Notes: generated by a model from the letters alone, not told the origin. A stretch of DNA of 64,000 nt from Planctomycetota bacterium (GCA_044225365.1 JBGAIQ010000001.1:1-64000), one strand, 5' to 3'. Counted from the stretch's first letter, positions 28,187-58,842 are shown. Program-made: numbers and translations.

Positions 28187-28354
28187 TCGACGATCGCGAG
28201 CCGCGGCCCGCACGCGCGGACTCCGCGTGCGGGCCGCGTCCTTGCATCCGTTCGCGAATCGTTCGCTCGCATGAAGATTCTCTGGACCTCCGCAACCACG
28301 ACGCCGAAGATCGGTTCAACGACGGGTCCCTCACTCGTGCTCGGAGGCGAATCG

Positions 28355-29965
28355 ATGTCTTTCGCGACGGTGTTCATCGCCCTCCTGTGCGGATTCACGC
28401 CACCTTCCCCCGCGGCCTCGCACGGAGCGACGCGCGACGATCGAGCGCTCGAATCGATCCCTGCGATCGATTCGAAGGACTGGTCGCTCGCCCACGCGAG
28501 GCAGTTGCTCGATCGCGCCGGATTCGGCGGCACTCCGGAGCAGATCGAGAAGCTCTTCGCCCTGGGCCCCGAAGGCGCGGTCGACTGCCTCCTCGACGCC
28601 GCTTCTGGACGCGAGCCGGAGCAGCGGTTCGACGCCGAGATCCTCCGCAAGAAGTTGCGAGAGATGCTGCCGCCCGGCGAGACGCCGAAGGGCGAGGTCG
28701 GGCAGAAACTCCGCCGTCAACTCGTGCTGAAGGACCGCTCCCAGTTCGAGGAGTATCGCGAGTTCTGGATCACGCAGATGGAGACGAGCGCGGATCCGCT
28801 GCGCGAGAAGCTCGCGTTGTTCTGGCACGGCTACTTCACGTCGGCGCAGCGCGAAGTGCGCGACTCCTACTCGATGGCGCGGCAAGTCGAACTCTATCGC
28901 GCGCTCGGACTCTCGTCGTTCCGCGAACTGTTGCAGCGGGCGAGCAAGGAGCCCGCGATGATCGAATACCTGAACAACGATCAGAACAAGAAGCAGTCCC
29001 CGAACGAGAACTTCGCGCGCGAGGTGATGGAGCTCTTCACGATGGGCCCCGGTCACTACACCGAGGACGACATCCACGAGGCCGCGCGCGCCTTCACCGG
29101 CTGGCAGACGCGGGAAGGCGAATTCGTGTTCAGTCGCGGGCGTCACGATTTCGGCAAGAAGCAGTTCCTCGGACGAACGGGCGCCTTCGGCGGCGAGGAG
29201 ATCCTCGACATCCTGCTCGAACAGGATGCGACACCGCGGTTCGTCGCGAAGAAGCTGTTCGAATTCTTCGCCTATCGCGATCCGTCACCGGACGAGATCG
29301 AGCCGCTCGCGCGCCTGCTGCGCGAGCACGACTACGCACTCCGCCCGGCCCTGCGCGCCTTGTTCCTGTCGAAGGCGTTCTACTCGCAGGACGCGGTCGG
29401 AGCATTGTTCAAGAGCCCGGTCGAGTTCTGCGTCTCTACGGTGCGGAGGCTCGACATCGAACCGCCGCCTCCGGGAGTGCTCGTCGAGGCCTGCGCGTTG
29501 CTCGGGCAGGAGCTCCTGAATCCGCCGAACGTGAAGGGATGGGACGGCGGGGAGTCGTGGATCTCGGCCTCGACGCTGCTCATGCGCGCCAACGTCGCCC
29601 GCGCGCTCGTCTTTGGGGATGCCGCATTCGTCGCCCGCGGACGCAAGAACAAGATGGATGGTGAACGGACGAAGGACAACGTCGCGAGCGTGGGCTTCAA
29701 GGTGATGAAGGACCTGCGCGGCTGGCGACCGGCGATCCAAGTCGACAAGTGGATCGGCGACGCGACCGACGCGCACACCGCGGTGACGCGGCTCTGCGAC
29801 CGCTTGCTCGCGATCACGCCCGCACCGTCGACGGTCGACGAGTTCGTGCGCTACGCAGCGCCGTTCGGCGACGAGGCGTTCGATCCGACGCAGCAGGACA
29901 CGCGGGAACTGCTGGTCGAGGTCGTCCACATGATCCTGTGTCTCCCCGAGTATCAGCTGAATTGA
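28355..29965 (+). CDS. DUF1800 domain protein
   Basis: LLDRAGFG, LREKLALFWHGYF, PNENFAREVMELFTMG, ARAFTGW, PPNVKGW. GGAGG RBS. Confidence 0.92.
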   Translation: MSFATVFIALLCGFTPPSPAASHGATRDDRALESIPAIDSKDWSLAHARQLLDRAGFGGTPEQIEKLFALGPEGAVDCLLDAASGREPEQRFDAEILRKKLREMLPPGETPKGEVGQKLRRQLVLKDRSQFEEYREFWITQMETSADPLREKLALFWHGYFTSAQREVRDSYSMARQVELYRALGLSSFRELLQRASKEPAMIEYLNNDQNKKQSPNENFAREVMELFTMGPGHYTEDDIHEAARAFTGWQTREGEFVFSRGRHDFGKKQFLGRTGAFGGEEILDILLEQDATPRFVAKKLFEFFAYRDPSPDEIEPLARLLREHDYALRPALRALFLSKAFYSQDAVGALFKSPVEFCVSTVRRLDIEPPPPGVLVEACALLGQELLNPPNVKGWDGGESWISASTLLMRANVARALVFGDAAFVARGRKNKMDGERTKDNVASVGFKVMKDLRGWRPAIQVDKWIGDATDAHTAVTRLCDRLLAITPAPSTVDEFVRYAAPFGDEAFDPTQQDTRELLVEVVHMILCLPEYQLN

Positions 29966-30002
29966 GCCGCGAGTCGATCGAACCCGAACCAGGTGAACCA
30001 TC

Positions 30003-31217
30003 ATGCGAAGTGCATTCGAATCGAATCGTCGCGCCTTCCTGAAGTCGGCGACCGCGGCTCTCTGCGTCGGTCCCAGTCTGTTCGCTCGCGCACTCGCGGC
30101 GAGGGGTGACTCGAGCGATGACCGCGTCCTGGTGCTGCTCGAGCTCGCCGGTGGAAACGACGCGCTCAACATGCTCGTCCCATTCGCGGACGATGCGTAC
30201 TACCGCGTGAGGCCGAACATCGCGATCGCCGCGAACGAACTCGTGAAGCTCGACGACGAAGTCGGCCTGCACCCTGCGCTCGCGAAGTTGAAGCCGCTCT
30301 ACGATGCAGGGAACTTTGCGCTCATCGAAGGCGCCGGGTACCCGAATCCGATCCGTTCCCACTTCCTGTCGATGGACGTGTGGGAATCGGGCGATCTGAA
30401 GGGTCGCAATGGGGGCACGGGATGGGTCGGCCGGCTCGCCGACTCGGCGTTCGCCGACCTCGACGATCCGAACGCGGTCGTCGCGCTAGGCCAAAAGGTC
30501 CCGTTCAGTTGCGAGGGCGAACGTTATCGGGCGGTCGCGCTCTCGTCGGTGAAGGCGTATCGCGTCGTGGGCGAGGATCGCATGGTCGAATCGCTCGACT
30601 CGGCGATCTCGTCGCAGAAGGTGAGCGAGCACGCGCGCAAGTTCCTGCGCGATGCCTACGTGAAGGCCCGCGAATCGTCCGAGGCGGTCGCGGCCGCCGC
30701 CGCGCAGTACAAGCCGGGCGCCGAGTATCCGAACAACAGTCCACTCGCCAGCGACCTGCGCACGGTCGTGTCGTTGATCGCGGGCGGCCTGAAGACGCGA
30801 GTCTTCGCGGTCCAGATGGGTGGATTCGACACGCACAACAACGAGGTTCAACGCCACAACCAGCTCTACACGAACCTCGCCGGCTCGCTCGCGGCGTTCT
30901 TCGAAGACTTGAAGGCTCACGGCTTGTCCGATCGCGTGATGGTGCTCGGGTTCTCCGAGTTCGGTCGTCGCGTGAAGTCGAATGCCAGCGGCGGTACCGA
31001 TCACGGAACTGCAGGGACGATGTTCGCGATCGGCGCAAGGGTGAAGGGTGGGCGTCACGGCAAGCGCCCGAGTCTCACCGAGCTCGATGCCAACGGCGAC
31101 TTCGTGCATACGACCGATTTCCGCAGCGCCTATGCGACGGTCATCGATCGTTTCCTCCGGTGTGACGCCCGAAAGGTCGTTCCCGATGCGCCGGGAAGAC
31201 TCGGCTTCTTGAGCTGA
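30003..31217 (+). CDS. DUF1501 domain protein (Tat signal)
   Basis: RRAFLK, LAGGNDALN, RSHF, GGFDTH, SEFGRR, GTDHG, DFRSAYATV. Confidence 0.93.
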   Translation: MRSAFESNRRAFLKSATAALCVGPSLFARALAARGDSSDDRVLVLLELAGGNDALNMLVPFADDAYYRVRPNIAIAANELVKLDDEVGLHPALAKLKPLYDAGNFALIEGAGYPNPIRSHFLSMDVWESGDLKGRNGGTGWVGRLADSAFADLDDPNAVVALGQKVPFSCEGERYRAVALSSVKAYRVVGEDRMVESLDSAISSQKVSEHARKFLRDAYVKARESSEAVAAAAAQYKPGAEYPNNSPLASDLRTVVSLIAGGLKTRVFAVQMGGFDTHNNEVQRHNQLYTNLAGSLAAFFEDLKAHGLSDRVMVLGFSEFGRRVKSNASGGTDHGTAGTMFAIGARVKGGRHGKRPSLTELDANGDFVHTTDFRSAYATVIDRFLRCDARKVVPDAPGRLGFLS

Positions 31218-35785: not shown

Positions 35786-36904
35786 TCAGGGCGTCTGTGA
35801 CGTCTTCGGCTGGTAGTTCGGATTCCCGACCAGCACGTAGCAGTTTTTGCAGACCTCGGGGTAGTCGCGCGCGAACATGCGGCGGCGAAACTCCTGGTAG
35901 CGCGGTCCGTTCCAGATCGCCTCGAAGCTCTCCTTCGTGACGTCGCCCATCTTGAGCTCCTCCGGTCCACGGCAGCACGGGAACACCGCGCCGTCCGGGT
36001 TGACCTTGAGGTACGTCGTCGACATCGAGCAGTAGTTCGGGAATTGGCGCGAGATCGCGTCCGTGAAGCGCAGGCGAAGTTCCGCGAGCGGCGCCTTGTA
36101 ATGCTCCTCACGATTCGCAAAGTAGAAGCGGCCCTGGAACGGCGGGCGGAGTTCCAACGTGAGATCGATCTTGCGCGCTTCCGCGACCGCGCGAGCTTTC
36201 GTGAGCTCGGCCGCGATCTGCTCGTGCGAGACCTTGCCCTCCCAGACGAGGCTGTCGAACTGCGTGGAATTGGGGAGCAGTTCCTGGATGTTGCAGGCGG
36301 TGCCCCCGAGATCGGCGACGAGTTCGACGAACTTCGCCGCCTCGAACCAGTTCGTCGCCATCAACACGTAGTTGAACGTGACTTCGACGCCGTCCTGCAG
36401 CGCGCGCGGCAGCACGTTCTTCACGTTTTGCATGACGACGTCCCAGTTGGCGGGGACGCGGATCCGCTCGAACGTCTCCTTCGTCGCGGCGTCGAGCGAG
36501 ATCCAGAGCTTGTGCAGGCGGTCGCGGATCTTCTCGTAGCGTTCGAGCGTCAGCAGCGTGCCGTTGCTGAAGAGGTGCAGCCAGACGATGTGCTTGCGCG
36601 CCTGATCCGCGATGAGATCGACGTTGTTGAGCAGCGGCTCGCTGTTCGCCGACGGAGTCCAGTGCAATGTCCAGGGCAGGACGGAGTCGAGGAACTTGAT
36701 CCCGACCTCTTTGTCGAGCACCCAGTTCGGCTCGTCGTCCGACTTGGCGCACATGATGCACTTGAGATTGCAGAGATTGTTGAACGAGAACTCGAGACGA
36801 GTGGGGCGGCTCTTCCAGACCAGCGAATGCGTCGCAAGGTCCGAAGCGAGCGCGACTTCGTTGTCGAGTTCACGGTCGATCTTGGAGGCGGCAGGTTCCG
36901 ACAT
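35786..36904 (-). CDS. Radical SAM protein with SPASM/twitch domain
   Basis: CNLKCIMC; C-terminal YC...DGAVFPCC...IWNG...CKNC. Confidence 0.9.
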   Translation of the reverse strand: MSEPAASKIDRELDNEVALASDLATHSLVWKSRPTRLEFSFNNLCNLKCIMCAKSDDEPNWVLDKEVGIKFLDSVLPWTLHWTPSANSEPLLNNVDLIADQARKHIVWLHLFSNGTLLTLERYEKIRDRLHKLWISLDAATKETFERIRVPANWDVVMQNVKNVLPRALQDGVEVTFNYVLMATNWFEAAKFVELVADLGGTACNIQELLPNSTQFDSLVWEGKVSHEQIAAELTKARAVAEARKIDLTLELRPPFQGRFYFANREEHYKAPLAELRLRFTDAISRQFPNYCSMSTTYLKVNPDGAVFPCCRGPEELKMGDVTKESFEAIWNGPRYQEFRRRMFARDYPEVCKNCYVLVGNPNYQPKTSQTP

Positions 36905-36997
36905 GAGGCTCCATTGATAGCACGAAGCGTCGCAGCGGGCGCCCTCCAAATCGCCACACGCGGCACACCACGGGACGCGCCGCCGTCGACCCGGCGA

Positions 36998-39209: not shown

Positions 39210-40823
<1,614 letters not shown>

Positions 40824-40846
40824 CTATCTCTTTCCGGGTGCGTTCT

Positions 40847-41140
40847 TCAGGACTCGAGGCGCAAGAGGATCTCGCTCTCGCGCATGATCTTCACTTCCTT
40901 GCCGTCGATCTTGACGTCGGAGCCGGCGTACTTGCCGAACATCACGACGTCCTGGACCTTGACGGTCAGAGGATGGCGCTCGCCGTTCTTGCCGGACTTC
41001 CCGGCGCCGACCGCGGTCACGCGACCACGCTGCGGCTTCTCCTTCGCAGTGTCGGGCAGCAGGATGCCGCCGGCCGACTTCTGCTCGGCTTCGAGGACCT
41101 CGACCACGACCCGGTCGTCGATGGGACGAATCTTGACCAT
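40847..41140 (-). CDS. groES: Co-chaperonin GroES
   Basis: IRPIDDRVVV, GGILLPDTAKEKPQRG, FGKYAG. Confidence 0.97.
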   Translation of the reverse strand: MVKIRPIDDRVVVEVLEAEQKSAGGILLPDTAKEKPQRGRVTAVGAGKSGKNGERHPLTVKVQDVVMFGKYAGSDVKIDGKEVKIMRESEILLRLES

Positions 41141-41214
41141 GACAATTCTCTCCGATGCTGTTTGTATTCTTGGTTCGTGCGGACGGAATGGATCGAGAGT
41201 GAGGCGCTTCGGAC

Positions 41215-42906
41215 TCAGAAGTCCATGCCTCCGCCCATGCCACCCATACCGCCCATTCCACCCATGCCACCCATACCGCCCATACCGCCCATCTCGTCGT
41301 GACCACCGGGGCCGCCCTTGTTGTCGCTCTCCTTCTTCGGGAGTTCCGCGACGAGGGCGTCGGTGGTGAGGAGGAGGGCTGCGACGGACGCACCGTTGGT
41401 GAGTGCCGTGCGGACGACCTTGGCAGCGTCGATCACACCGAACTCGAGCATGTCGCCGAAGCGCTCGCCGAGCGCGTCGTAGCCGAACGAGCCCTTGCCC
41501 GCGAGGACCTGCTTCAGGATCAGCGGAGCGTCGGCGCCCGCGTTGTTCGCGATGGTGCGCAGCGGTTGCTCGACCGCCTTCTTCAGGATCTGGATGCCGA
41601 AGGCTTCGTCGCCCGCGACCTCGACCTTGTCGAGCGCCTTGCGGGCCCGTAGGAGCGCCACGCCGCCGCCGGGGACGATGCCTTCTTGCACCGCCGCGCG
41701 CGTCGCGTGGAGCGCATCCTCGATGCGCGCCTTCTTCTCCTTGACCTCGACCTCGGTCGCGCCGCCGACCTTGATCACCGCGACGCCGCCCGCGAGCTTC
41801 GCGAGACGCTCTTCGAGCTTCTCACGATCGTAGTCGGAAGTCGCCTTCTCGATCTCGCGACGGATCTGCTCGCCGCGCGCCTTGACGGCCTTGTCCGAAC
41901 CCGCACCCGAGACGATCGTCGTGTTTTCCGACGAGATCGTGATCTTGGCGGCCTTGCCAAGATCCGCGAGGCGGATGCTCTCGAGGTCGATTCCGAGATC
42001 CTTGAAGAGCGGCTTGCCGCCCGTGAGGATCGCGATGTCCTCCATCATGGCCTTGCGGCGATCGCCGTATCCCGGCGCCTTGACGGCCGCGCACTTCAGG
42101 ATGCCGCGCAGCTTGTTGACGACGAGCGTCGCGAGCGCCTCGCCCTCGACATCCTCCGCGATGATGAGCAGCGGGCGACCTTGCTGGCTGACCTGCTCGA
42201 GCAGCGGGATGAGCTTCTTCGCGGACGAGAGCTTGTCCTCGTGGATGAGCACGAAAGCGTTCTCGAGCTCTACTTCCATCTTCTCCGTGTCGGTCACGAA
42301 GTGCGGCGAGAGGAAGCCGCGGTCGAACTGCATGCCCTCGACGACGTCGACCTGGGTCTCGACGTTACGTCCGTCGTCGACCGTGATCACGCCATCCTTG
42401 CCGACGCGGCTCATCGCGTCCGCGATCATCTTGCCGACCTCGGCATCGTTGTTCGCGGAGATGGCGGCGACGTGGAGGATCTCGCGCTGATCATCGGCCT
42501 TCTTGGCGCTCGCGGTGATCTCCGCGCACATCGCGTCGACGCCCTTCTTGATGCCGCGGGTGAGCGCCGCGGCGTTCACTCCCGACGTGAGGAACTTCAG
42601 GCCTTCGAGGAAAACGGCTTCCGCGATGACCGTCGCCGTCGTCGTGCCGTCACCCGCGACGTCGCTCGTCTTCGATGCGGCTTCCTTCACGAGCTGCGCC
42701 GCCATGTTCTCGTAGGCGTCCTTGAGCTCGATCTCCTCGGCGACGGTGACGCCGTCCTTGGTGATCGTCGGTGCGCCCCAGCCCTTGTCGATGACCGCAT
42801 TGCGGCCGCGCGGACCGAGCGTGCTCTTCACGGCGCGGGCGATCTTGATGACGCCGTCGCGCAGTCTCTCACGAGCTTCTTGTTCGAAGGCGAGCTGCTT
42901 CGCCAT
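41215..42906 (-). CDS. groEL: Chaperonin GroEL (first copy, GGM tail)
   Basis: [31 protein letters not shown]-terminal (GGM)n. Confidence 0.97.
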
Positions 42907-43130
42907 GGTGAGTTGTACTCCCGTCTTGGGTTTGCTTTCGGAAAACGACGAAGCGCAACGGTCCGACTCCGCTCTCGAAGCTCGGGCGCGAGCGCTTTTC
43001 TTGTTCTGACGACCGGTCAGGTCTCGTTCGTGGCGGTCGTGCGACCGCGAGTTCGCTGCGTTCGATCGCAGGACTCGCGGCGCGGCGGAATGTTCCGCAT
43101 CGACTGCACGGACGGCGACGCGATCGCCTC

Positions 43131-49261: not shown

Positions 49262-51094
49262 GTGGATAACCAGCGCGTACGACTGACGCTGCTCGTAGCA
49301 TTCATCTTCACGATCATGTTCTTCTGGGCGACGAACAAGGATCGGCCGCCCGTTCCCCCCGTGACCAAGGATCCGAGCGCGCCGCAGGCGAACACGTCTT
49401 CGGGGAGCGGCGGTTCGGGGACGAGCGCGAGTAGTCCTGCGTCCGCGAGCAATTCGAACCCCGCGCCGGCGGTTCCCGCGAAGTTCGAGGTCACGGCCGT
49501 TCCGGAAGTGCCGGTGCTCCCGCTCGAGAACGAGTTCCTCCGCGTCGAACTGTCGGCCATCGGCGGGTCGATTCGCCAGGTCAGTCTGAAGAAGTTCTAC
49601 GAGACGCCGCCGCCCCGCGGCGCGCGGCCGGAGGACATCGACCCCGCGCTGCTCGTCCAACTCCTGCCGACGACTCCGAAGGCGATCGCGCCGACGCTGG
49701 CGTTCGCGGAGCATGGCGCCTCCGACGCCGAGAACCAATTGCTCGCGACGAAGCCGTGGACCGTTTCGGAGGAGCGCTCGGACGCGGGCGACCGCACCGT
49801 CGTCTTTGGATTTCGCACGGCCGACGGCATCGAGATCGAGAAGCGACTCACCCTGAAGAAGGACAGCTACGCGCTCGACATCGAACTGCGCACCAAGAAG
49901 GTCGATCCGACCTTGCCCGCGGCGAAGATCTTTCGCATCCGAATCGGCTCGGGCGTGAAGGACACGCATCGTGGGCAGTTGTCCCAGGATCCTTCGTGCG
50001 TCGCCATGCAGGACGACGGTCGCGGCGAGATCGCGGTCACCGTGAAGCACGCGAAGGACCTCGGGACGGCGATGGTGACGCTCGAGCGTCAGGGCGAGGC
50101 TCGACTGCCTTTCGCGGGCGTTGCGAACCACTATTTCGCCCTGCTCCTCACTCCCGCCGACGATGCCGCCGATCAACGCACCGTCGGCACGAATCTCTCG
50201 ACGTTCGACGCCAAGGATCCGGAAGCCGTGACGACCGAAGTCGCGGTCTCGATGCCGCTCGACGAGAGTTCAGCGCAACGGACGCATCTCCGGCTCTACG
50301 CCGGCCCCAAGGATCCGCGCCTCCTCGAGGCGCAGGGTCTGCCGCGACTCGTGCATCTCGTCGAGGAGGACTACGGGAGCTGGAAGAGCCTGCGCTGGGT
50401 CAACAAGGCGTTGCTCGGTGGCCTGCGCTTCTTCCACGGCCTCGTCGGCAACTGGGGCGTCGCGATCATGCTGCTCACGCTCCTGATCCGCGCCATCGTG
50501 TTCCCGATCACTCGCGCCCAACAGGTGAGCATGGCGCGCTACAGCGCGAAGATGGCGGTGCTGAAGCCCAAGCTCGATCGCCTCAAGGCCGAGATGGGGG
50601 ACAACCCGCAGAAGTTCGCTCAAGAGCAGATGAAGCTGCTGCGCGAGCACCAAGCGACACCGCCGCTCTTCGGCTGTCTCTCGAGCTTCATCACATTGCC
50701 GGTCTTCGTCGGGATGTGGCAGAGTCTGCGCAGCGCGATCGAGGTTCGGCAGGCCGAATTCGTCGGTTGGATCCACGACCTCTCCCTGCCCGACGCGCTC
50801 ATGACGATCGGCACGATCCACATCAACGTGCTCCCGATCCTCGCCACGTCCGCCTTCGTGCTGCAGGTCGCAATGCAACCGAAGCCCGCCGATCCACAGG
50901 CCGCTCAGCAGCAGAAGATGATGATGGTGATGCCGATCATCTTCGGTGTGGTCTTCTACAACTACGCAGCCGGCCTCTCGCTCTACTCCCTCACCTCGAG
51001 CAGCCTCTCGATCTTCGAGTCGAAGGTGATCCGGAAGAAGTGGCCGGTGCCTACGGCGGCTTCGTTCCAAGCTGTTCCCGTGAAGAAGAAGTAG
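49262..51094 (+). CDS. yidC: Membrane protein insertase YidC
   Basis: N-terminal TM, periplasmic domain, YAGPKD, GNWGVAIMLLTLLIR, WIHDLSLPD, AGLSLY. Confidence 0.94.
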   Translation: MDNQRVRLTLLVAFIFTIMFFWATNKDRPPVPPVTKDPSAPQANTSSGSGGSGTSASSPASASNSNPAPAVPAKFEVTAVPEVPVLPLENEFLRVELSAIGGSIRQVSLKKFYETPPPRGARPEDIDPALLVQLLPTTPKAIAPTLAFAEHGASDAENQLLATKPWTVSEERSDAGDRTVVFGFRTADGIEIEKRLTLKKDSYALDIELRTKKVDPTLPAAKIFRIRIGSGVKDTHRGQLSQDPSCVAMQDDGRGEIAVTVKHAKDLGTAMVTLERQGEARLPFAGVANHYFALLLTPADDAADQRTVGTNLSTFDAKDPEAVTTEVAVSMPLDESSAQRTHLRLYAGPKDPRLLEAQGLPRLVHLVEEDYGSWKSLRWVNKALLGGLRFFHGLVGNWGVAIMLLTLLIRAIVFPITRAQQVSMARYSAKMAVLKPKLDRLKAEMGDNPQKFAQEQMKLLREHQATPPLFGCLSSFITLPVFVGMWQSLRSAIEVRQAEFVGWIHDLSLPDALMTIGTIHINVLPILATSAFVLQVAMQPKPADPQAAQQQKMMMVMPIIFGVVFYNYAAGLSLYSLTSSSLSIFESKVIRKKWPVPTAASFQAVPVKKK

Positions 51095-51102
51095 CTCGCG
51101 GG

Positions 51103-51150
51103 CTCCAACATTTTGCGTCCCCTCTATCATCGTCCCACAACCGGTGGTAG
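51103..51150 (+). promoter_or_regulatory. Tandem NrdR-box-like operator overlapping a putative promoter
   Basis: Box 1 CTCCAACATTTTGCGT (51103-51118) matches all core positions of acaCwAtATaTwGtgt. Weaker box 2 CCACAACCGGTGGTAG (51135-51150) at 32-bp spacing. TTGCGT-N17-CACAAC overlaps both. Confidence 0.6.
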
Positions 51151-51291
51151 AACCAGCCAACGCGGCGGACGGAGCATGGATTTGGAGCGGTTGCGGTACT
51201 TCGGGCGGTGAAAGCCTGGTGGCGCAAGGGGTTCCAAGCGGCGTCCGGTGCGCCCGTCGCGACTTCGCATCCCCTGAACCCACGGCATCGC

Positions 51292-51768
51292 ATGCGCTGC
51301 CCATTCTGCTCCGCGAACAACGATCGTGTCATCGACTCGCGAACGTCGGGAGACGCGTTCGTGATTCGTCGCCGACGTGAGTGCATTCAATGTGCGAAGC
51401 GGTTCACGACCTACGAGAAGGTCGAGGAGCCCACACTGCACGTGATCAAGAAGGACGGATCGCGGGTCCCCTTCGATCGCGCCAAGATCATGAACGGCCT
51501 GCTCAAGGCCTGCGAGAAGCGTCCGGTCTCGGTCGATCGGCTCGAAGAAGTCGTGAACCGGATCGAGGCGCAGCTCAACGAGTCGTTCGACAAGGAAGTG
51601 TCTTGTCGGTTCGTCGGCCAGCTCGTGATGAACGCGTTGAAGGAGATCGACGAAGTCGCGTACGTGCGCTTTGCGTCGGTCTACCGCGAGTTCAAGGACA
51701 TCGAGGAGTTCATGCACGAACTCCAACCCCTGCTCGATGCGCGGAGGCTCCCGATCCGTGATTCGTAG
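51292..51768 (+). CDS. nrdR: Transcriptional repressor NrdR
   Basis: MRCPFC..DSR..IRRRREC..C..RFTTYE, ATP cone VIKKDG, DEVAYVRFASVYREF. Confidence 0.98.
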   Translation: MRCPFCSANNDRVIDSRTSGDAFVIRRRRECIQCAKRFTTYEKVEEPTLHVIKKDGSRVPFDRAKIMNGLLKACEKRPVSVDRLEEVVNRIEAQLNESFDKEVSCRFVGQLVMNALKEIDEVAYVRFASVYREFKDIEEFMHELQPLLDARRLPIRDS

Positions 51769-53881
51769 CGCAAGAGTCGTGCGGAAGAGAGACGGCCGCG
51801 AAGTGCCGTTCGAGCAGGCCAAGATCGTGAGCGCGATCTGGAGTGCAGCTCGTTCCGTTGGCGGCGGCGATCGGCTCCTCGCCGAGGAACTCGGTTCCGT
51901 CGTCGCGATGTTCATCGAGCGCGAGTTCCAGGATCGCACGCCGTCGATCGACGATGTCTCCGATCTGATCGAGAAGGTGCTCGTCGAGACGGGTCATGCG
52001 CGCACGGCGAAGGCCTACATCCTCGAGCGGGAGCGACGCGATCGCATCCGTCAAGCATTGCGCGTGCGCGACGACGCCGCGGGTGCGCTCCCGTTCGACG
52101 GCTACACGCGAACGAGTGGAACGCACGCGCATGGGAACCCGCGAGGCGTGCTCGGATTCGGCATATCGCCCGCCGTCGACGCGCATGCGAGGGGGAGCGT
52201 CTCGCCGTGGTCGAAGGCGAAGATCATCGAGGCGTTGATCCTCGAAGCGGAGGTGCCGAACACGGTGGCCGCGGAGATCGCGTCCGAGGTGGAGCGTCGA
52301 GTCTTCGCATCGGGCATCACGCGAATCTCGACCTCATTGGTGCGCGCGCTCGTCGACAACGAGCTCTTCGAGCGCGGCTACACGCGCTGGCTCGATCGGC
52401 AGGGCGTGCTCGGGCTGCCGCGCTACGATCTCGATCGCATGGCCCGCGGGGGCGTCGAACTCGATTCGGCCTCAGCGCACTCGACGCCGTACTTCGGGAC
52501 CGCGCTCGACGGCGAAGTCGCGCGTGCGACGTGGTCGCAGTACTCGCTGCTCGAGATCTACCCGCAGCCCGTCGTCGAAGCGCACTCCGCGGGTCGGATC
52601 CACCTCGGCTGTCTCGCGGCGCCCTCGCGATTCCAGTCGCTCGCGATCGACCTCTCCAAGATCGCGCTCGAACGCCTGGCGCTGCCGTTGCCCCCGCAGC
52701 GGGCGGAGCGAGCGGGTCTGCAGGTGAGCGACCTGGTGCGAGAACCCGAACTGCTCCGCGTCATCGCGGCGCGCGCCACGAGCCTCGGTCACGAACGGAT
52801 CGTCCTCGAGGGGCTCGAGAACGCGATCGGTCGCGAACTCGAATCGGGCGCAGCGCCGCGCGATGTCGCGCGCGGATTCGCTCTCTCTCTTGCGGTGCCC
52901 GCGGGGCCCGAGGGGGTCCAGGGCCGGATCGAACTCGATCTTCCGATCGCGGTCGCGACCGGGTCGCGCGAGGGGCTCGCCGCTTCCGTCGCCTATGCGG
53001 AGTTCGTGCAGGAACTCTTGTCCGCGATCGCCCGCGTGCCGACCTTCCTCGCGCCACCGGCGATCGCGTTCCGTCTCGAGGGAGCCGCAGATGCCTCGGG
53101 CGATGTTCTCGCTGCGATCTCCCTCGCCGAAGTCGATCCCGAGCGCGTGCGGATTCGCGCGGGGCGTCGCATGCCCGGCCTTCCTCCCGTGGTGCCTTTG
53201 CTCGAGCGCGTCGCCGTGAACCTCGCGCATCCGTCGCTGCTCGCACCGAAGGGCGACACGTCGGCGGCGATCGCGCAGATCACGACGGCCATCGAGATCG
53301 CGGCCGAGGCGTGCGAAGCTCGCCTCCGGTTCCTGGCGTCGCTCGTCGGATCCGCGGCACCGCGCGAGCGCGCGGCGGCGATGTTCGGCAGCGACGAGCT
53401 CGCGGTGGGCGGCTTCGAGATCGCCCTCGCCGCGATCGACTCCGCGGCGCGCGCCCAGACTGGAGAATCGGTGGTGCGCGACGAAGGCCGCGAATACGCA
53501 CGCTCGGTCGTGGCCGCCGCGCGCGGCGTCGTCGCTCGCGAGTCCGCGTCGCGGCGCATCCCGATCGTGCTCGCCCTCTGTGACGATCGCGTCGCGCTCT
53601 CCCGTTTCGGCCGCTCGGACGCGGAGCGCTTTCCGCGAACCCGCGATGCCGCGGCCCTGCCACACGACGGCACTCGCTACGTCTATCACGGCGGCGTGCC
53701 GGCGCTCCACGCGGATGCGTCGGAACTGCCGATCGAGAAGATCGCCCGCATCGAGGCCGAGCTGCGCGCTCGCCTCGCTCCGAGCATCGTGACCCTGCCC
53801 TATGCTGCGGTCGAAGACCGCGTTCAGTTCCTGAAGATGATCGACCCGCTCTTGCGGGAGGACCTGCTTCGATGCGCTTGA
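51758..53881 (+). CDS. Degenerate class III ribonucleotide reductase (NrdD)-like protein with two ATP cones, apparently non-catalytic
   Basis: GGAGG RBS and GTG start inside nrdR. ATP cone 1 VRKRDGREVPFEQAKI...AKAYIL, cone 2 PWSKAKIIEAL...LVDNEL. NrdD-like LGLPRYD, QYSLLEIYP..VVEAH..GRIHL, VAVNL, RFGRSD..RFP. No C-terminal Zn CxxC pairs and no RxxGY glycyl loop. Confidence 0.75.
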   Translation: MIRSARVVRKRDGREVPFEQAKIVSAIWSAARSVGGGDRLLAEELGSVVAMFIEREFQDRTPSIDDVSDLIEKVLVETGHARTAKAYILERERRDRIRQALRVRDDAAGALPFDGYTRTSGTHAHGNPRGVLGFGISPAVDAHARGSVSPWSKAKIIEALILEAEVPNTVAAEIASEVERRVFASGITRISTSLVRALVDNELFERGYTRWLDRQGVLGLPRYDLDRMARGGVELDSASAHSTPYFGTALDGEVARATWSQYSLLEIYPQPVVEAHSAGRIHLGCLAAPSRFQSLAIDLSKIALERLALPLPPQRAERAGLQVSDLVREPELLRVIAARATSLGHERIVLEGLENAIGRELESGAAPRDVARGFALSLAVPAGPEGVQGRIELDLPIAVATGSREGLAASVAYAEFVQELLSAIARVPTFLAPPAIAFRLEGAADASGDVLAAISLAEVDPERVRIRAGRRMPGLPPVVPLLERVAVNLAHPSLLAPKGDTSAAIAQITTAIEIAAEACEARLRFLASLVGSAAPRERAAAMFGSDELAVGGFEIALAAIDSAARAQTGESVVRDEGREYARSVVAAARGVVARESASRRIPIVLALCDDRVALSRFGRSDAERFPRTRDAAALPHDGTRYVYHGGVPALHADASELPIEKIARIEAELRARLAPSIVTLPYAAVEDRVQFLKMIDPLLREDLLRCA

Positions 53882-56800
53882 AGAAGATCGAGATCCACGG
53901 CTTCAAGTCCTTCGCGGACAAGACGGACTTCGAGGTCGGCAAGGGCGTGACGTGCCTCGTCGGCCCCAACGGCTGCGGCAAGAGCAACGTCGTCGACGCG
54001 CTCAAGTGGTCCCTCGGTGAGCAGCGCGCTAGCGCGCTCCGCGGCGACTCGATGGCGGACGTCATCTTCAAGGGCAACGGCAATCGCCCGGCGATGGGTT
54101 TTGCCGAAGTCACTCTCATCTTCGACAACGAAGCGGGCGAATTGCCGATCGATCTCCCCGAAGTCGCCGTGACGCGACGGCTCTATCGGAGCGGCGATTC
54201 GGAGTACCTGCTGAATCGGCAGCCCGTGCGTCTGAAGGACGTGCGGGAACTGTTCGTCGATACGGGCCTCGGAGCCAATGCGTACGCCGTGCTCGAGCAG
54301 GGCAAGATCGACGCCGTCCTGCGCGCGAATCCGGTCGATCGGCGCGCGCTCTTCGAAGAAGCGGCGGGCATCCAACGGTTCCGACTGCGCAAGAAGGAAG
54401 CCGCTCGCAAGCTCGAGAAGGTCGATCAGAATCTGTTGCGCGTCGCCGACGTCATGGCGGAACTCGAGAAGCGCGAGCGATCGCTGAAGGTCCAGGCCGG
54501 AAGGGCGCGATCCTACGTGCAGCTCACTGCGCGCCTCACCGAATTGAAGACGGTGCAATTCCTGGTCGCCGGATTCGAGATGGCGCAACGGTGGATGGAA
54601 CTCGTCACGCGCCTCGAGGCCGCACGTCTCGACGACGTGACGAGCGATCAGGCGCTCGTCGCCGCCTCCGCCGAGGTCGAGGCCCGCGACAAGATCGTCG
54701 TCGGCGAGCGCGATCGCGCCGGTGAACTCCGCACGCGCGAAGCTCAGGTCCATGCCGAGCGCGACGGCGCGCGCACTCAGATGCAGGCGCTCGAGATGCG
54801 GCGCGAAGAGTCGGAACGCGCGGCTGCGGATCGTGAGAAGAGGATCGGCGAACTCGACGCCGAGATCGTCGCTCGCGGCCAGGAAGTCGAACAGCGCGAG
54901 GCCGATGTCGCCCGCTTCGAAGGGGAGCTGAAGGACGCGCGCGCGATCGTTGCCGAACGCAAGACTGCGCTCGCGGCCGAGGAGCGCGCCGAGCAGGAAC
55001 GGGCCGCCGAGATCGAGCGTTTGCGGCGTTCGGCCATGCAGGCCGCGCAGCAGGAACTCGAACTCTCGAATCGACTGACCGCCGTCGAGACCCGCGGCCG
55101 CAGTCTGCGGCAGTCGCGAGAACGACTCGTGCGGCGCGAGGCCGAGATCGCGGGCATGCTCGAGAAGGTGCGCATCGATGCCTCCTCGATCGAGAGCAAT
55201 CTCTCCCGTCTCGGGCGAGAGGCGGAAGAGCAGGGCGCCTCGCTCGAGCGCGCGCGCGAGGAACTCGGTGCCCGCCGCACGCGCGAACACGAATTGCGCA
55301 ATGCGATCGCGGAGTTGTCGGCGCAGCGCGCCGGCAAGGTGGCCCGTCGCGATACGCTCGCATCGGTCATCGAGAAGATGGAGGGCGTCGACGAGGGCTC
55401 GCGCATCCTGCTTCGTGCCGCGCGCGACGACAAGGCGCGCCATGGCGGAGTCCTCGGACTCCTCGGCGAGATGTTCACCGTGCCGCGCGAACGAGCACGT
55501 GCGGTGGACGCGGCGCTCGGCGCCCTGGCCGGTGCAATCGTCGTCGAGAACGTCGAGGCTTTGCGACGCAGCGTCGAGTTCCTGCGCGCTCAGGGCAAGG
55601 GAACGGCGACGTTCTTCGTGCTCGACAAGGCGCGCGGACCGTCGAGCACGCAGGGTCCGGGGGAGTCGCTCCTCGAGGGCGTCGATCTCCCGGATCACGT
55701 GGCCCCGTTGTCGATGGCGGTCCTTGGCGGCGCGCGCCTCGTGCGCTCGGAGGACGCGCTGTTCGAGGCGCTCGGCGAGGGTGCGTTCGTCGTCACCGAG
55801 GACGGCATGCGCCTCGACGCGAACGGCGCGTTCCAGGACCGACCGAAGAAGCAAGCGCTCGGATTCGTCGAGCGCAAGGCGGAGCGCGATGAGCTCACGA
55901 AGGAGCTCGTCGTCCTCGAAGAGAAGCTGCATCGGATGGGCGAGGACGAGGCGCGGCTCGCGGGCGAGATCGCCGAGTGGACCGCGACCGTGTCGGAGGC
56001 CGAAGCGCGTCGACGCGCTGTCGAGGCCGGGATCGTGGAGACCCGAAGCGCATCCGAGCGACTGCGCGATCGCGCTCAGATCTTCCGTCGCGAGCTCAAG
56101 GTGAGCGCGCACGAACGCTACGACGTCGAGCGCGAGGAGACTCGCAATCATTCCGAGCGATTCGCGGCGTCCGCTGCGCTTGTCGGCAAGCAGGACGAGC
56201 GCACTGCGCTCGAGGCGAGCCGGATGGCGCTGGTGGCCGCCCGCGAAGAGCGGGAGGCTCTGCTGCAAGCGCTCGTCGAGGCCGCGGCGCAAGCGACGCG
56301 CGAGGTCGTGCGAGTGGAAGAGCGCGCACGTTCGGCCCAATCCGAACTCGCCGTCCTGAAGCGTGGTCTCGACGAACTCTTGCGTGCGCGATCCGATCAG
56401 GAGCGCGAGCGGACGAATCTTCAGGAGCGCGCGGCCCGGGCGACCGCCGACGCGGCGGCCCAGCGCGAGATCGCTGACCGGCTCGCACTCGAAGTCGAAG
56501 CGCTCGTGACCTCGATCGCATCCGCCGATGCCGCCGTCGAGGTGGCGATGTCGGCTTCGCGGGAATCGCGACAAGCCGCTCTCGAAGCCGCGGAGCGTCG
56601 CGAACAGGCGCGGGCGTGTCTCCATCGCCTCGAGATCGAAGAGCGAGAGCTCGACCTCGGCCGTACGAATCTTCGCGCTCGCGCGCAGGAAGAGATCTCT
56701 CTCGACCTCGACACCAAACTGTCGGAATTCGATCCCACGCAATCCCCACCCGCCGAGGTGCTCGCGAGCGAGATCGCGGAACTGCGCGACAAGGTGGCTC

Positions 56801-57429
56801 GACTCGGCAACGTGAATCTCGACGCGATCAACGAACTCGAGGAGGTCGAGCAACGGCTCGAATTCCTCACCAAGGAGCGGTCGGATCTCGACGCCGCGAG
56901 GCGCTCGCTCGAGGACACGATCAAGGAGCTCGATCAGATCTCGAAGGGCAAGTTCGCCGAGACGTTCGAGATCATCCGTGGACACTTCCGTGAGATCTTC
57001 CGCAAGCTGTTCCACGGCGGACGCGCCGACATCATGCTCACCGAGGGAGCGGACGTCCTCGAGGCGGGCGTCGAGATCATCGCGGGCCCGCCCGGCAAGG
57101 ATCCACGGTCGATCACGTTGCTTTCGGGCGGCGAGCGCACGATGACCGCGGTCGGTCTGCTCTTCGCGCTGTTCAAGGCGAAGCCGGCACCGGTCGCTGT
57201 GCTCGACGAAGTCGATGCCGCGCTCGACGAAGCGAACACGGAGCGCTTCTGCGGACTCCTCTCCGAGTTCATTGGCCAGTCCCAGTTCCTGATCGTGACC
57301 CACAGCAAGCGCACCATGTCGTACGCTGACATCATCTTCGGCGTCACGATGCAGGAGAATGGCGTGTCCAAGCGGATCGGGATCCGGCTCGAAGACTACG
57401 AGGACAAGGATCAGGGACAGGTCGCGTAG
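53872..57429 (+). CDS. smc: Chromosome segregation protein SMC
   Basis: GFKSFA, GPNGCGKSN, EQGKI, long coiled coils with a central hinge, LSGGE, VLDEVDAALD, VTH. Confidence 0.97.
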   Translation: MRLKKIEIHGFKSFADKTDFEVGKGVTCLVGPNGCGKSNVVDALKWSLGEQRASALRGDSMADVIFKGNGNRPAMGFAEVTLIFDNEAGELPIDLPEVAVTRRLYRSGDSEYLLNRQPVRLKDVRELFVDTGLGANAYAVLEQGKIDAVLRANPVDRRALFEEAAGIQRFRLRKKEAARKLEKVDQNLLRVADVMAELEKRERSLKVQAGRARSYVQLTARLTELKTVQFLVAGFEMAQRWMELVTRLEAARLDDVTSDQALVAASAEVEARDKIVVGERDRAGELRTREAQVHAERDGARTQMQALEMRREESERAAADREKRIGELDAEIVARGQEVEQREADVARFEGELKDARAIVAERKTALAAEERAEQERAAEIERLRRSAMQAAQQELELSNRLTAVETRGRSLRQSRERLVRREAEIAGMLEKVRIDASSIESNLSRLGREAEEQGASLERAREELGARRTREHELRNAIAELSAQRAGKVARRDTLASVIEKMEGVDEGSRILLRAARDDKARHGGVLGLLGEMFTVPRERARAVDAALGALAGAIVVENVEALRRSVEFLRAQGKGTATFFVLDKARGPSSTQGPGESLLEGVDLPDHVAPLSMAVLGGARLVRSEDALFEALGEGAFVVTEDGMRLDANGAFQDRPKKQALGFVERKAERDELTKELVVLEEKLHRMGEDEARLAGEIAEWTATVSEAEARRRAVEAGIVETRSASERLRDRAQIFRRELKVSAHERYDVEREETRNHSERFAASAALVGKQDERTALEASRMALVAAREEREALLQALVEAAAQATREVVRVEERARSAQSELAVLKRGLDELLRARSDQERERTNLQERAARATADAAAQREIADRLALEVEALVTSIASADAAVEVAMSASRESRQAALEAAERREQARACLHRLEIEERELDLGRTNLRARAQEEISLDLDTKLSEFDPTQSPPAEVLASEIAELRDKVARLGNVNLDAINELEEVEQRLEFLTKERSDLDAARRSLEDTIKELDQISKGKFAETFEIIRGHFREIFRKLFHGGRADIMLTEGADVLEAGVEIIAGPPGKDPRSITLLSGGERTMTAVGLLFALFKAKPAPVAVLDEVDAALDEANTERFCGLLSEFIGQSQFLIVTHSKRTMSYADIIFGVTMQENGVSKRIGIRLEDYEDKDQGQVA

Positions 57430-57516
57430 CAGCGCCACGAGATCATCGTGGCGGGGCCGCGGCGCGCGACCGTAGTACCTGCTTCGCGGCCGCCCTTCAC
57501 CCGCAACTCATCCCAT

Positions 57517-57557
57517 GAAAGAACGAGGTCCGCGACGACGGGAGTCATCGCGGACCT
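57517..57557 (-). terminator. Intrinsic terminator (minus strand; possibly bidirectional after smc)
   Basis: 14-bp stem 57526-57539/57544-57557 with a G.U pair on the minus strand, followed by CGTTCTTTC. Confidence 0.6.
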
Positions 57558-57651
57558 TGCTGCTTCGTGAAAGTGAGCCAGGAGGGGAACTCCGGGAAAA
57601 GGGGAAGAAGGGGAGAAGAGTTTTACACCGTAGCAGGTAACCCTCTGGCTC
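57517..57651 (-). ncRNA. Candidate small RNA with C/U-rich loop
   Basis: -10 TACAAT (57663-57658), 6 nt before the stem GAGCCAGAGGG/CCCTCCTGGCTC that encloses a 27-nt pyrimidine tract, followed by a terminator hairpin. Confidence 0.45.
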
Positions 57652-57912
57652 GATTGAATTGTAGCGGATCGCGCTTGGGACCCGGTTGTAGGACTCGACT
57701 CCGTAGGTCGATTCGATCGCGTCGATTCGTCGCAATGAACTGCGGACTTCGACGCTCCGTGGGGTGTCACTGCCGTAGCATGCGACTCCGTCGCAACGGA
57801 AGCCAACACAGTAGGGAGCGGATTCGCGGAAACAAGCGACGTCCAAGAAATCTCATCGAATGCAATTCGAAACCCGGTAAACGTGCAGCACGCGCGAAAC
57901 GAAGCGCGACTC

Positions 57913-58842
57913 ATGGCCAAGAACCGATCTGCACTTCGCAATTCCCTGGAGTACGGGGCCGTCGTCGCACTCACATCGACCTTTCGAGTGATGCCACGCC
58001 CCGTCGCGTTCTGGCTCACGGATCGAATCGGAGATCTGGCCTATCTGTGGGATGCGAAGCATCGCCGCGTCGCGATCGAGAACATTGGACGCGTATTTCC
58101 GGAATGGTCTCCAACGCAAGTCCGTCGAGCCGTCCGCCAGGTCTTCCGCAACTTCCTCCGCGTCGCGATCGAGCTTGCGATCCTGCCGGATGAACTCGAG
58201 AAGCGCGGTCTGCGCGATGTCATCGAAATCGTCGGTGAGGAGCACGTGAGGGCCGCATTCGCGTCCGGCAAAGGGGTCATCGTCTACAGCGCTCACCTCG
58301 GCAACTGGGAAGCCATCGCCGCCGCCGGCGAGCCGCTCTCCATGAAGCTGCACTCGGTCGGTCGCGCCCTCGACAACCCTCTCATCGACAAGATGTTGAT
58401 CCAGCATCGGTCGCGCTACGCAAGGTCCGTCGTGCCCAAGGAGGGCGGACTCCGGCGCATCGTACAGTTGCTCCGCGAGGGTTGTGGCGTTGCGATGTTG
58501 CTCGATCAACACGCCGGTCGAGACGGTATCCTGGTGGAATTCCTCGGACGTCCGGCTGCGACGTTTCGCGCTCCCGCGGAACTCGCCTGGAAGTTCGGCC
58601 TGCCCATCCTCGGCGGATTCGGCATCCGAGTCGATTCCTCGACGGACTCGAAGTTGCGGTTCCGCCTGGAGTTCCAGGAACCGCTCCTGCCCGATCCGAC
58701 GCAACCTCGTGAGGATGAAGTGCGGAGGCTCACTCAGTCGATGACGGATCGGATCGCTGTCTACGTGCGCCGTCATCCTGAGCAGTGGAACTGGCTGCAT
58801 CGTCGCTGGCGTGACGTGAAGACCCCGGAGAGTCGCCCTTGA
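57913..58842 (+). CDS. Lipid A acyltransferase LpxL/HtrB family
   Basis: SAHLGNWE, RALDNP, MLLDQHAG, VEFLG, HPEQWNWLHRRW. Confidence 0.92.
   Translation: MAKNRSALRNSLEYGAVVALTSTFRVMPRPVAFWLTDRIGDLAYLWDAKHRRVAIENIGRVFPEWSPTQVRRAVRQVFRNFLRVAIELAILPDELEKRGLRDVIEIVGEEHVRAAFASGKGVIVYSAHLGNWEAIAAAGEPLSMKLHSVGRALDNPLIDKMLIQHRSRYARSVVPKEGGLRRIVQLLREGCGVAMLLDQHAGRDGILVEFLGRPAATFRAPAELAWKFGLPILGGFGIRVDSSTDSKLRFRLEFQEPLLPDPTQPREDEVRRLTQSMTDRIAVYVRRHPEQWNWLHRRWRDVKTPESRP

Follow-up and report, generated by a model that had tools for sequence, protein, structure and literature searches.

The locus described here raises the question of why the only smc gene of a planctomycete stands at the end of a gene cluster that opens with nrdR, the gene for a repressor of ribonucleotide reductase (RNR) genes. 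It lies within a 64,000-nucleotide stretch of DNA from a Planctomycetota bacterium (GCA_044225365.1 JBGAIQ010000001.1:1-64000), the whole of which we call the window, and consists of two candidate NrdR boxes followed by nrdR, a middle gene that we call X, and smc. A first-pass annotation had taken this arrangement for a candidate chromosome-segregation module that senses deoxynucleoside triphosphates (dNTPs). Read most plainly, our results make X and the boxes leftovers of an RNR operon whose place upstream of smc was a matter of chance. We consider it probable that the locus is a remnant RNR operon with smc as its last gene, and we include in that judgment the history and mechanism proposed below. 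The identity of the parts (nrdR, a dead NrdD, smc and the boxes) is well supported; a sensing role for X and control of the whole unit by NrdR are inferred.

The three genes are on the plus strand and tightly packed in the order nrdR, X, smc (Table 1). The product of nrdR matches TIGR00244 at 205.6 bits (cut-off 124.65; E = 3.3e-61) and contains the domains Zn_ribbon_NrdR (PF22811, E = 1.1e-19) and ATP-cone (PF03477, E = 4.6e-25). The two CxxC pairs of its zinc ribbon (C3, C6, C31 and C34) are invariant in 28 orthologues. The last gene encodes a full-length SMC protein (TIGR02168, 885 bits over positions 1-1181, cut-off 567) with SMC_N and a hinge (E = 5e-16), and it is the sole SMC match in the whole genome at E <= 1e-10; scpA and scpB are on other contigs. 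The first-pass annotation had described overlaps of 11 bp (nrdR/X) and 10 bp (X/smc), with GGAGG before each downstream gene, and we find them as described. The start of X agrees with the N-terminus of its family (MIRSAR.VRKRDGR), and its 3' codons (..LREDLLRCA*) serve a double purpose, carrying GGGAGGA and the ATG of smc.

X is a homologue of the class III RNR (NrdD). Pfam finds two ATP-cone stretches alone in X, and the NRDD threshold is not reached; the cones are followed by a barrel remnant and then by a family-specific tail. Relatives of X form two groups, about 25 proteins of 590-707 aa from Planctomycetota metagenome-assembled genomes and a set of 800-aa two-cone NrdDs. Alignment with hhalign of the dead-family profile (21 members) to a profile of live NrdDs (16 members) gave a probability of 100 and E = 1.8e-85 over 598 columns, pairing X residues 5-604 with live positions 23-672 of 824, and the match of the live-enzyme profile to X stops at position 560 of 810. 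An AlphaFold2 model of X (mean predicted local distance difference test score, pLDDT, 83.9; predicted template modeling score, pTM, 0.75) was compared with known structures by Foldseek, and class III RNRs came out on top: 9D3X (E = 5e-15), then 8P2C, 4CON and 1HK8. By ESM features, X residues 231-707 were nearest to NRDD clusters (score 0.94). A PDB sequence search with X and the dead-family profile gave significant E-values at the ATP-cone only, and detection of the barrel homology therefore needed profile-profile and fold comparison.

The residues that carry out radical chemistry are missing. We compared 23 family members with 16 live NrdDs and 14 other forms in one alignment. Of the two cysteine columns that never vary in the live enzymes, one is occupied by S, G, A, E, R or T in all 23 family members and the other is a gap in all of them (in X itself, S at residue 294 and a gap). 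The four zinc cysteines are likewise absent, all columns being gaps in 23 of 23, and the glycyl-radical motif R..GY is absent from all 23. The cone-1 motif KRDGR..F..KI is intact in the family, and its residues are invariant in the 20 members that cover them. The genome that carries X (94% complete) gave no hit with PF13597, and the NrdG model TIGR02491 likewise found nothing at E <= 0.001. It does carry a class I NrdA and a class II NrdJ; this organism makes its dNTPs with class I and class II enzymes and has no live NrdD or NrdG. X is thus a catalytically dead NrdD homologue in which every element of radical chemistry has been lost and the two ATP-cones and the barrel fold have been kept, much as the first-pass annotation had proposed.

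Two features of individual family members were seen along the way. The linker that joins the two cones of X is lengthened by an insertion of about 20-25 residues (window 52109-52180, X residues ~118-141) that the other 20 family members lack, and the linker has pLDDT below 50 in the model. In genome G022 (L017:3383-3568) the match to X falls into two parts in different reading frames (residues 1-62 and 68-695), through an assembly error or through a frameshift that separates cone 1 from the remainder; the protein in public records has 604 aa.

Dead enzymes retained as sensors are well known in eukaryotes, and the persistence of X could have such a cause. Alternatively, X could be a functionless relic whose reading frame persists by delivering translation to the overlapping smc start, or has had too little time to decay. 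The position of the smc ribosome-binding site and start codon inside the last X codons fits that idea, as do the branches of dead forms in our tree, 3 to 10 times the length of live ones, and the outright loss of X on several occasions. The pattern of substitution argues the other way. Using only pairs with a synonymous rate (dS) of at most 0.75, the others being saturated, we obtained ratios of nonsynonymous to synonymous rates (dN/dS) for whole X in three independent lineages: 0.16 in family f1 (one genus), 0.21 and 0.22 in f3, and 0.26 in f73. Within the f1 pair, cone 1 had a ratio of 0.009, the linker plus cone 2 had 0.085 and the C-terminal part had 0.21; for comparison, nrdR and smc of the same pair had 0.03 and 0.09. 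Open frames of 590-720 codons have been retained in five families of the order and in at least ten other families, and the cone motif is invariant, as noted above. X is kept by purifying selection, and we regard the relic explanation as very improbable.

The region upstream of nrdR contains what looks like a genuine NrdR operator. According to two reports, an NrdR site consists of two partly palindromic 16-bp boxes 15-16 bp apart (PMC12176259, PMC13584703), with highly conserved positions C4, A6, A8, T9, T11 and G13, and other middle pairs can be tolerated (PMC13584703). A mismatch scan with a consensus of the literature type fitted poorly, with 5-6 mismatches even at RNR genes. We therefore cite scores from a weight matrix seeded on the boxes before the genome's own RNR genes and refined on the nrdR-upstream regions of relatives (refined consensus ACACAA.AT.TTGTGT). 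A held-out version was trained on the nrdR-upstream regions of other families, with the window and its whole family excluded. With this version, 17 positions in the 6.53-Mb genome score at least as high as box A and 235 at least as high as box B; the 16-mer between them (51119-51134) is not a box (-7.5 bits). Box A agrees with all six conserved positions and box B with four, because the middle of box B is CG. The central 8 bases of box A are those of the box before the genome's class I RNR gene. Relatives in the family have boxes at the positions that correspond to A and B, the one matching box B being between TTGACA and a TACA-type hexamer.

As a tandem pair, the two boxes stand out, and here too the first-pass annotation had seen correctly. 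Three pairs in the genome pass our filter, and the one before nrdR ranks second, above the pair that precedes the class II reductase gene. The best pair (L082:3895-3942, contig C33:218394-218441; sum 29-30 bits, offset 32) comes just before a gene (L082:3960-5288; 442 aa) that belongs to the CCA-adding enzyme / PcnB nucleotidyltransferase family and is not an RNR gene. For comparisons between genomes we used a threshold of 13.3 bits, the 99th percentile of control segments, which 2 of 37 nrdR-upstream regions from outside the planctomycetes reach. Boxes A and B together are best described as a predicted NrdR operator.

Table 1. Positions of the genes, domains and sites of the locus, numbered from the first nucleotide of the window.
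Feature	Position	Strand	Description
NrdR box A	51103-51118		CTCCAACATTTTGCGT; 14.1 bits with the held-out matrix
NrdR box B	51135-51150		CCACAACCGGTGGTAG; 16 bp after box A; 10.5-12.6 bits, 10.5 with the held-out matrix
nrdR	51292-51768	+	ATG start, TAG stop, 158 aa; a zinc ribbon followed by an ATP-cone
GGAGG ribosome-binding site for X	51743-51747	+	inside the end of nrdR, 10 nt 5' of the X start; read from the sequence
X	51758-53881	+	GTG start, TGA stop, 707 aa; NrdD-like
X ATP-cone 1	51776-52042	+	Pfam
X ATP-cone 2	about 52190-52381	+	Pfam
GGAGG ribosome-binding site for smc	53857-53861	+	within the last X codons, 10 nt before the smc start
smc	53872-57429	+	ATG start, 1185 aa
Inverted repeat	57526-57557		14-bp stem; ~100 bp 3' of smc; terminator scan scored the minus strand

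The first-pass reading depended on relatives having the same linkage, and they do. Of 42 genomes from the order to which the genome belongs, nrdR was found in 40 and smc in 38. Both genes are present in 38, and in 37 of these smc follows nrdR on the same strand at a distance of 0.2-2.5 kb; in the 38th, the two genes are on separate short contigs. For the phylum we used 40 family-diverse loci, a non-random sample drawn from the 150 best nrdR matches in 401 genomes, and smc was within 5 kb downstream of nrdR in 28. These loci fall into a series of layouts: full-length nrdD and a radical-SAM gene before smc (nrdR-nrdD-nrdG-smc; 5 loci), a truncated or dead NrdD between nrdR and smc (14), ATP-cone-only open reading frames (ORFs) of 133-379 aa (3), and nrdR directly followed by smc (6). 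smc was not nearby in the remaining 12, of which 2 were at a contig end. In a sample of 80 nrdR loci spanning the whole of GTDB, smc followed nrdR in 4 of 11 labelled Planctomycetota and in 0 of 69 others. The series from nrdR-nrdD-nrdG-smc to direct nrdR-smc argues that the link is old and independent of X, and among the sampled loci it was seen in Planctomycetota only.

Some variants of these layouts were also recorded. In genome G190 (contig C5; L064, L163) nrdR and smc are about 6 kb apart on opposite strands and still neighbours. Two loci (L048:3440-4888 and L072:9342-9992) have an extra ORF, of 482 and 216 aa respectively, between the dead NrdD and smc; neither has a Pfam match.

NrdD-derived genes extend well beyond family f1. 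A tblastn search with the C-terminal part of X found f1 only (8 of 401 phylum genomes with its own counted, among them 7 of 7 other f1 genomes), and profile hidden Markov models revealed NrdD-derived genes far more widely than tblastn had suggested. A quick maximum-likelihood tree with 45 rows places all 32 truncated and dead forms to one side of a single branch (SH-aLRT support 97); they are nested among the live NrdDs of the phylum, on the long branches already mentioned.

The junctions between genes bear on how smc came to be coupled to its neighbours. Of the 22 order loci measured, 18 have an X stop that overlaps the start of smc (3/6 in f1, 7/7 in f2, 4/4 in f104, 1/1 in f105 and 3/4 in f3), and in most of these loci nrdR also runs 4 to 17 bp into X. 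The five intact operons have instead a gap of 150-410 bp between the activase gene and smc, which indicates that smc became tightly coupled when nrdG was lost or later. The conserved end of X (..LRED..C.) owes its conservation at least in part to the smc ribosome-binding site and start codon encoded there. In four of the loci where nrdR is directly followed by smc, the stop of the first gene and the start of the second overlap by 4 bp.

These spacings also bear on a second alternative, that the linkage is conserved gene order of no regulatory meaning, with smc transcribed from a promoter of its own, located within X or behind it, and the boxes controlling nrdR and X only. The gap in the intact operons leaves space for such a promoter, and yidC also stays upstream in many loci, as though the whole region were slow to rearrange. 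However, there is no intergenic space before smc in the window and most of its order, and with a 4-bp nrdR/smc overlap smc can hardly avoid sharing the nrdR transcript.

The distribution of boxes could likewise be taken to mean that they serve nrdR and X. A box of at least 13.3 bits was found in 3 of 6 f1 loci, 11 of 19 other order loci with X, 7 of 10 loci with a dead X elsewhere in the phylum, 3 of 3 with cone-only remnants, 3 of 6 intact operons and 0 of 5 with a truncated NrdD. The counts were 0 of 7 for direct nrdR-smc and 2 of 10 where nrdR had no smc nearby. The zero for direct forms suggested that boxes vanish whenever X is lost, and this was weakened to a tendency by additional loci: two direct loci had boxes of 13.9 and 13.3 bits, and three X loci had 15.1, 20.0 and 14.1 bits. 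Summed by class, loci with an NrdD-derived gene have such a box in 27 of 49 cases in the first sample and in 3 of 5 additional ones, versus 2 of 9 direct loci, both at the threshold. Strong boxes thus tend to be commoner with an NrdD-derived gene than in direct nrdR-smc loci, in a pattern that is not clean and among related genomes that are not independent. Weighing the junctions and the boxes together, we find the gene-order explanation somewhat unlikely.

The first-pass annotation went further and suggested that SMC activity, too, might be tied to nucleotide status through X. On this reading X senses ATP/dATP and acts on SMC, through its loading, ATPase or level, such that chromosome compaction tracks nucleotide status. 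The frequent X/smc overlap, the status of smc as the genome's only SMC gene and the apparent restriction of the linkage to Planctomycetota are all in keeping with this proposal. The history of the locus is not. Operons with a live nrdR-nrdD-nrdG-smc order indicate that the neighbourhood predates the pseudoenzyme, and it survives loss of X: nine loci have nrdR directly before smc and lack X, and in five of these genomes X is not found elsewhere, and therefore SMC works without it. Moreover, we found no feature in X or SMC that suggests contact, SMC being an ordinary full-length TIGR02168 protein. Beyond adjacency, we see nothing that links X to SMC.

Genomes in which smc is not linked to nrdR provide a further comparison. 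Seven of eight such smc genes have no box of at least 13.3 bits in the 400 bp upstream, which argues against the module. The eighth (genome G007) agrees with it: a near-consensus box (CCACAATATGTTGTTT; L170:1418-1433, contig C132; 18.8 bits) is located 83 nt 5' of smc, beside a TTGACT-17-TATAAT promoter, and is the sole site of at least 13.3 bits in the 18 kb examined. The region upstream of the nrdR gene of G007 has no good box (best 5.4 bits), and Pfam searches of the ORFs upstream of its smc were uninformative. Taken together, we consider action of X on SMC improbable. Of the proposed tie between SMC and nucleotide status, the part that concerns expression remains plausible, by way of co-transcription; nothing shows X acting on SMC.

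We propose that the remnant operon arose and may work as follows. An ancestral nrdR-nrdD-nrdG operon would have been located upstream of smc. In one large lineage, NrdD would have lost its glycyl-radical end and nrdG would have been lost, and the shortened NrdD gene would then have come to overlap smc. NrdR with ATP plus dATP could bind both boxes and lower transcription of nrdR and X and, by read-through, of smc. We suspect that X senses ATP/dATP with its cones and takes part in dNTP homeostasis in a non-enzymatic way, acting for instance on NrdR or on the reductases that still work. A complex prediction of NrdR with X residues 1-235 scored 0.01 versus a mark of 0.32, with controls not folded, and speaks neither in favour of binding nor against it. 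The tie to smc would be mainly one of co-expression. The compact unit, the operator, the conserved linkage and the X/smc overlap make NrdR-dependent expression of smc by co-transcription plausible.

Several observations weigh against this proposal. Co-transcription and NrdR control are deduced from spacing alone. A simple scan found no sigma-70-type promoter on the plus strand, and such a scan does not cover planctomycete promoters. Box B, with its CG centre, has a modest score by the held-out matrix, and the weight matrix was trained on nrdR-upstream regions and not on proven sites. Most pairs for dN/dS were saturated, and in f3 constraint on the cones is no stronger than on the remainder of X, so a function located in the cones is not a general claim. 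The single origin of the dead forms comes from a quick tree, in which long branches may attract each other. X is dispensable in some lineages and really gone in five direct-type genomes, which have no ATP-cone protein besides NrdR, barring one match in a 1494-codon open frame. Lastly, the box before the unlinked smc of G007 favours a more direct tie between NrdR and SMC than we have assumed.

The surroundings of the locus give some indication of its limits. yidC is upstream of nrdR and ends at 51094. Downstream of smc there are about 450 bp and then a lipid A acyltransferase gene and a gene for a PfkB-kinase/cytidylyltransferase fusion. The inverted repeat 3' of smc is a possible end of the operon; a simple scan of 50900-57900 found no terminator-like site on the plus strand. 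Searches of 50500-58200 gave no match to Rfam families at E <= 0.1, and the 141-nt leader has no known RNA element. Elsewhere in the window are tandem chaperonin genes of the Cpn60/GroEL family (39210-43128, minus strand; 537 and 637 aa), a DUF1800/DUF1501 gene pair (28187-31217, plus strand) and a radical-SAM/SPASM gene (35786-36997, minus strand).

Our literature searches found no report of smc in an NrdR-controlled operon, and the papers that name both nrdR and smc are unrelated as judged by their titles and abstracts. Nor did they find NrdR, an ATP-cone and smc treated together, a description of an ATP-cone pseudoenzyme of the RNR family, or a published description of a dead NrdD beside nrdR. 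Term searches of two broad RNR phylogeny papers did not find pseudoenzymes, inactive or non-catalytic forms, pseudogenes or planctomycetes. The comparison of layouts across genomes is new. Within one phylum and at one fixed chromosomal place, it runs from a working anaerobic reductase through a shortened enzyme, a cone-bearing pseudoenzyme and a cone-only remnant to loss, and since this whole path is visible in one phylum, the role of ATP-cones after the loss of catalysis is directly testable.

The locus may also matter for how these bacteria organise their chromosomes. The only SMC gene of many planctomycetes appears to be in an NrdR transcription unit, a link found in none of the sampled loci of other phyla. 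It suggests, and does not prove, that chromosome organisation in this planctomycete is wired to the supply of DNA precursors; if transcripts bear the arrangement out, these bacteria would couple the organisation of their chromosomes to dATP/ATP sensing. One could speculate further that in much of the Planctomycetota the NrdR operon drives expression of the sole SMC, with translational coupling between them, and that X as an ATP/dATP sensor gates, together with NrdR, the amount or action of SMC according to precursor supply. We give this extended version a slim chance; if true, it would connect nucleotide pools to chromosome organisation in bacteria.

The closest known relatives of X are the class III NrdDs that carry an ATP-cone at the N-terminus, such as those of S. 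thermophilus (9D3X), Prevotella copri (8P2C/8P23), T. maritima (4CON) and phage T4 (1HK8). X shares with them the order of cones followed by a ten-stranded barrel, and the likeness extends to profile (E = 1.8e-85), fold (E = 5e-15) and the conserved ATP-cone motif. Live two-cone NrdDs of the same phylum occupy the place of X between nrdR and smc. Unlike these enzymes, X lacks the glycyl-radical domain, the zinc ribbon and both conserved cysteines, its last ~100 residues are a family-specific tail, and its genome has no activase.

For the operon as a whole, the nearest parallel is nrdRJ of Streptomyces coelicolor, in which, according to published reports, nrdR is co-transcribed with a reductase gene behind NrdR boxes (PMC13584703, PMC9110341). 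In both organisms the repressor gene comes first, a reductase-type gene follows, and tandem 16-bp boxes precede nrdR, an arrangement that points to control by NrdR of its own operon. In contrast to nrdRJ, the reductase gene of the planctomycete is dead, and the putative operon continues into smc.

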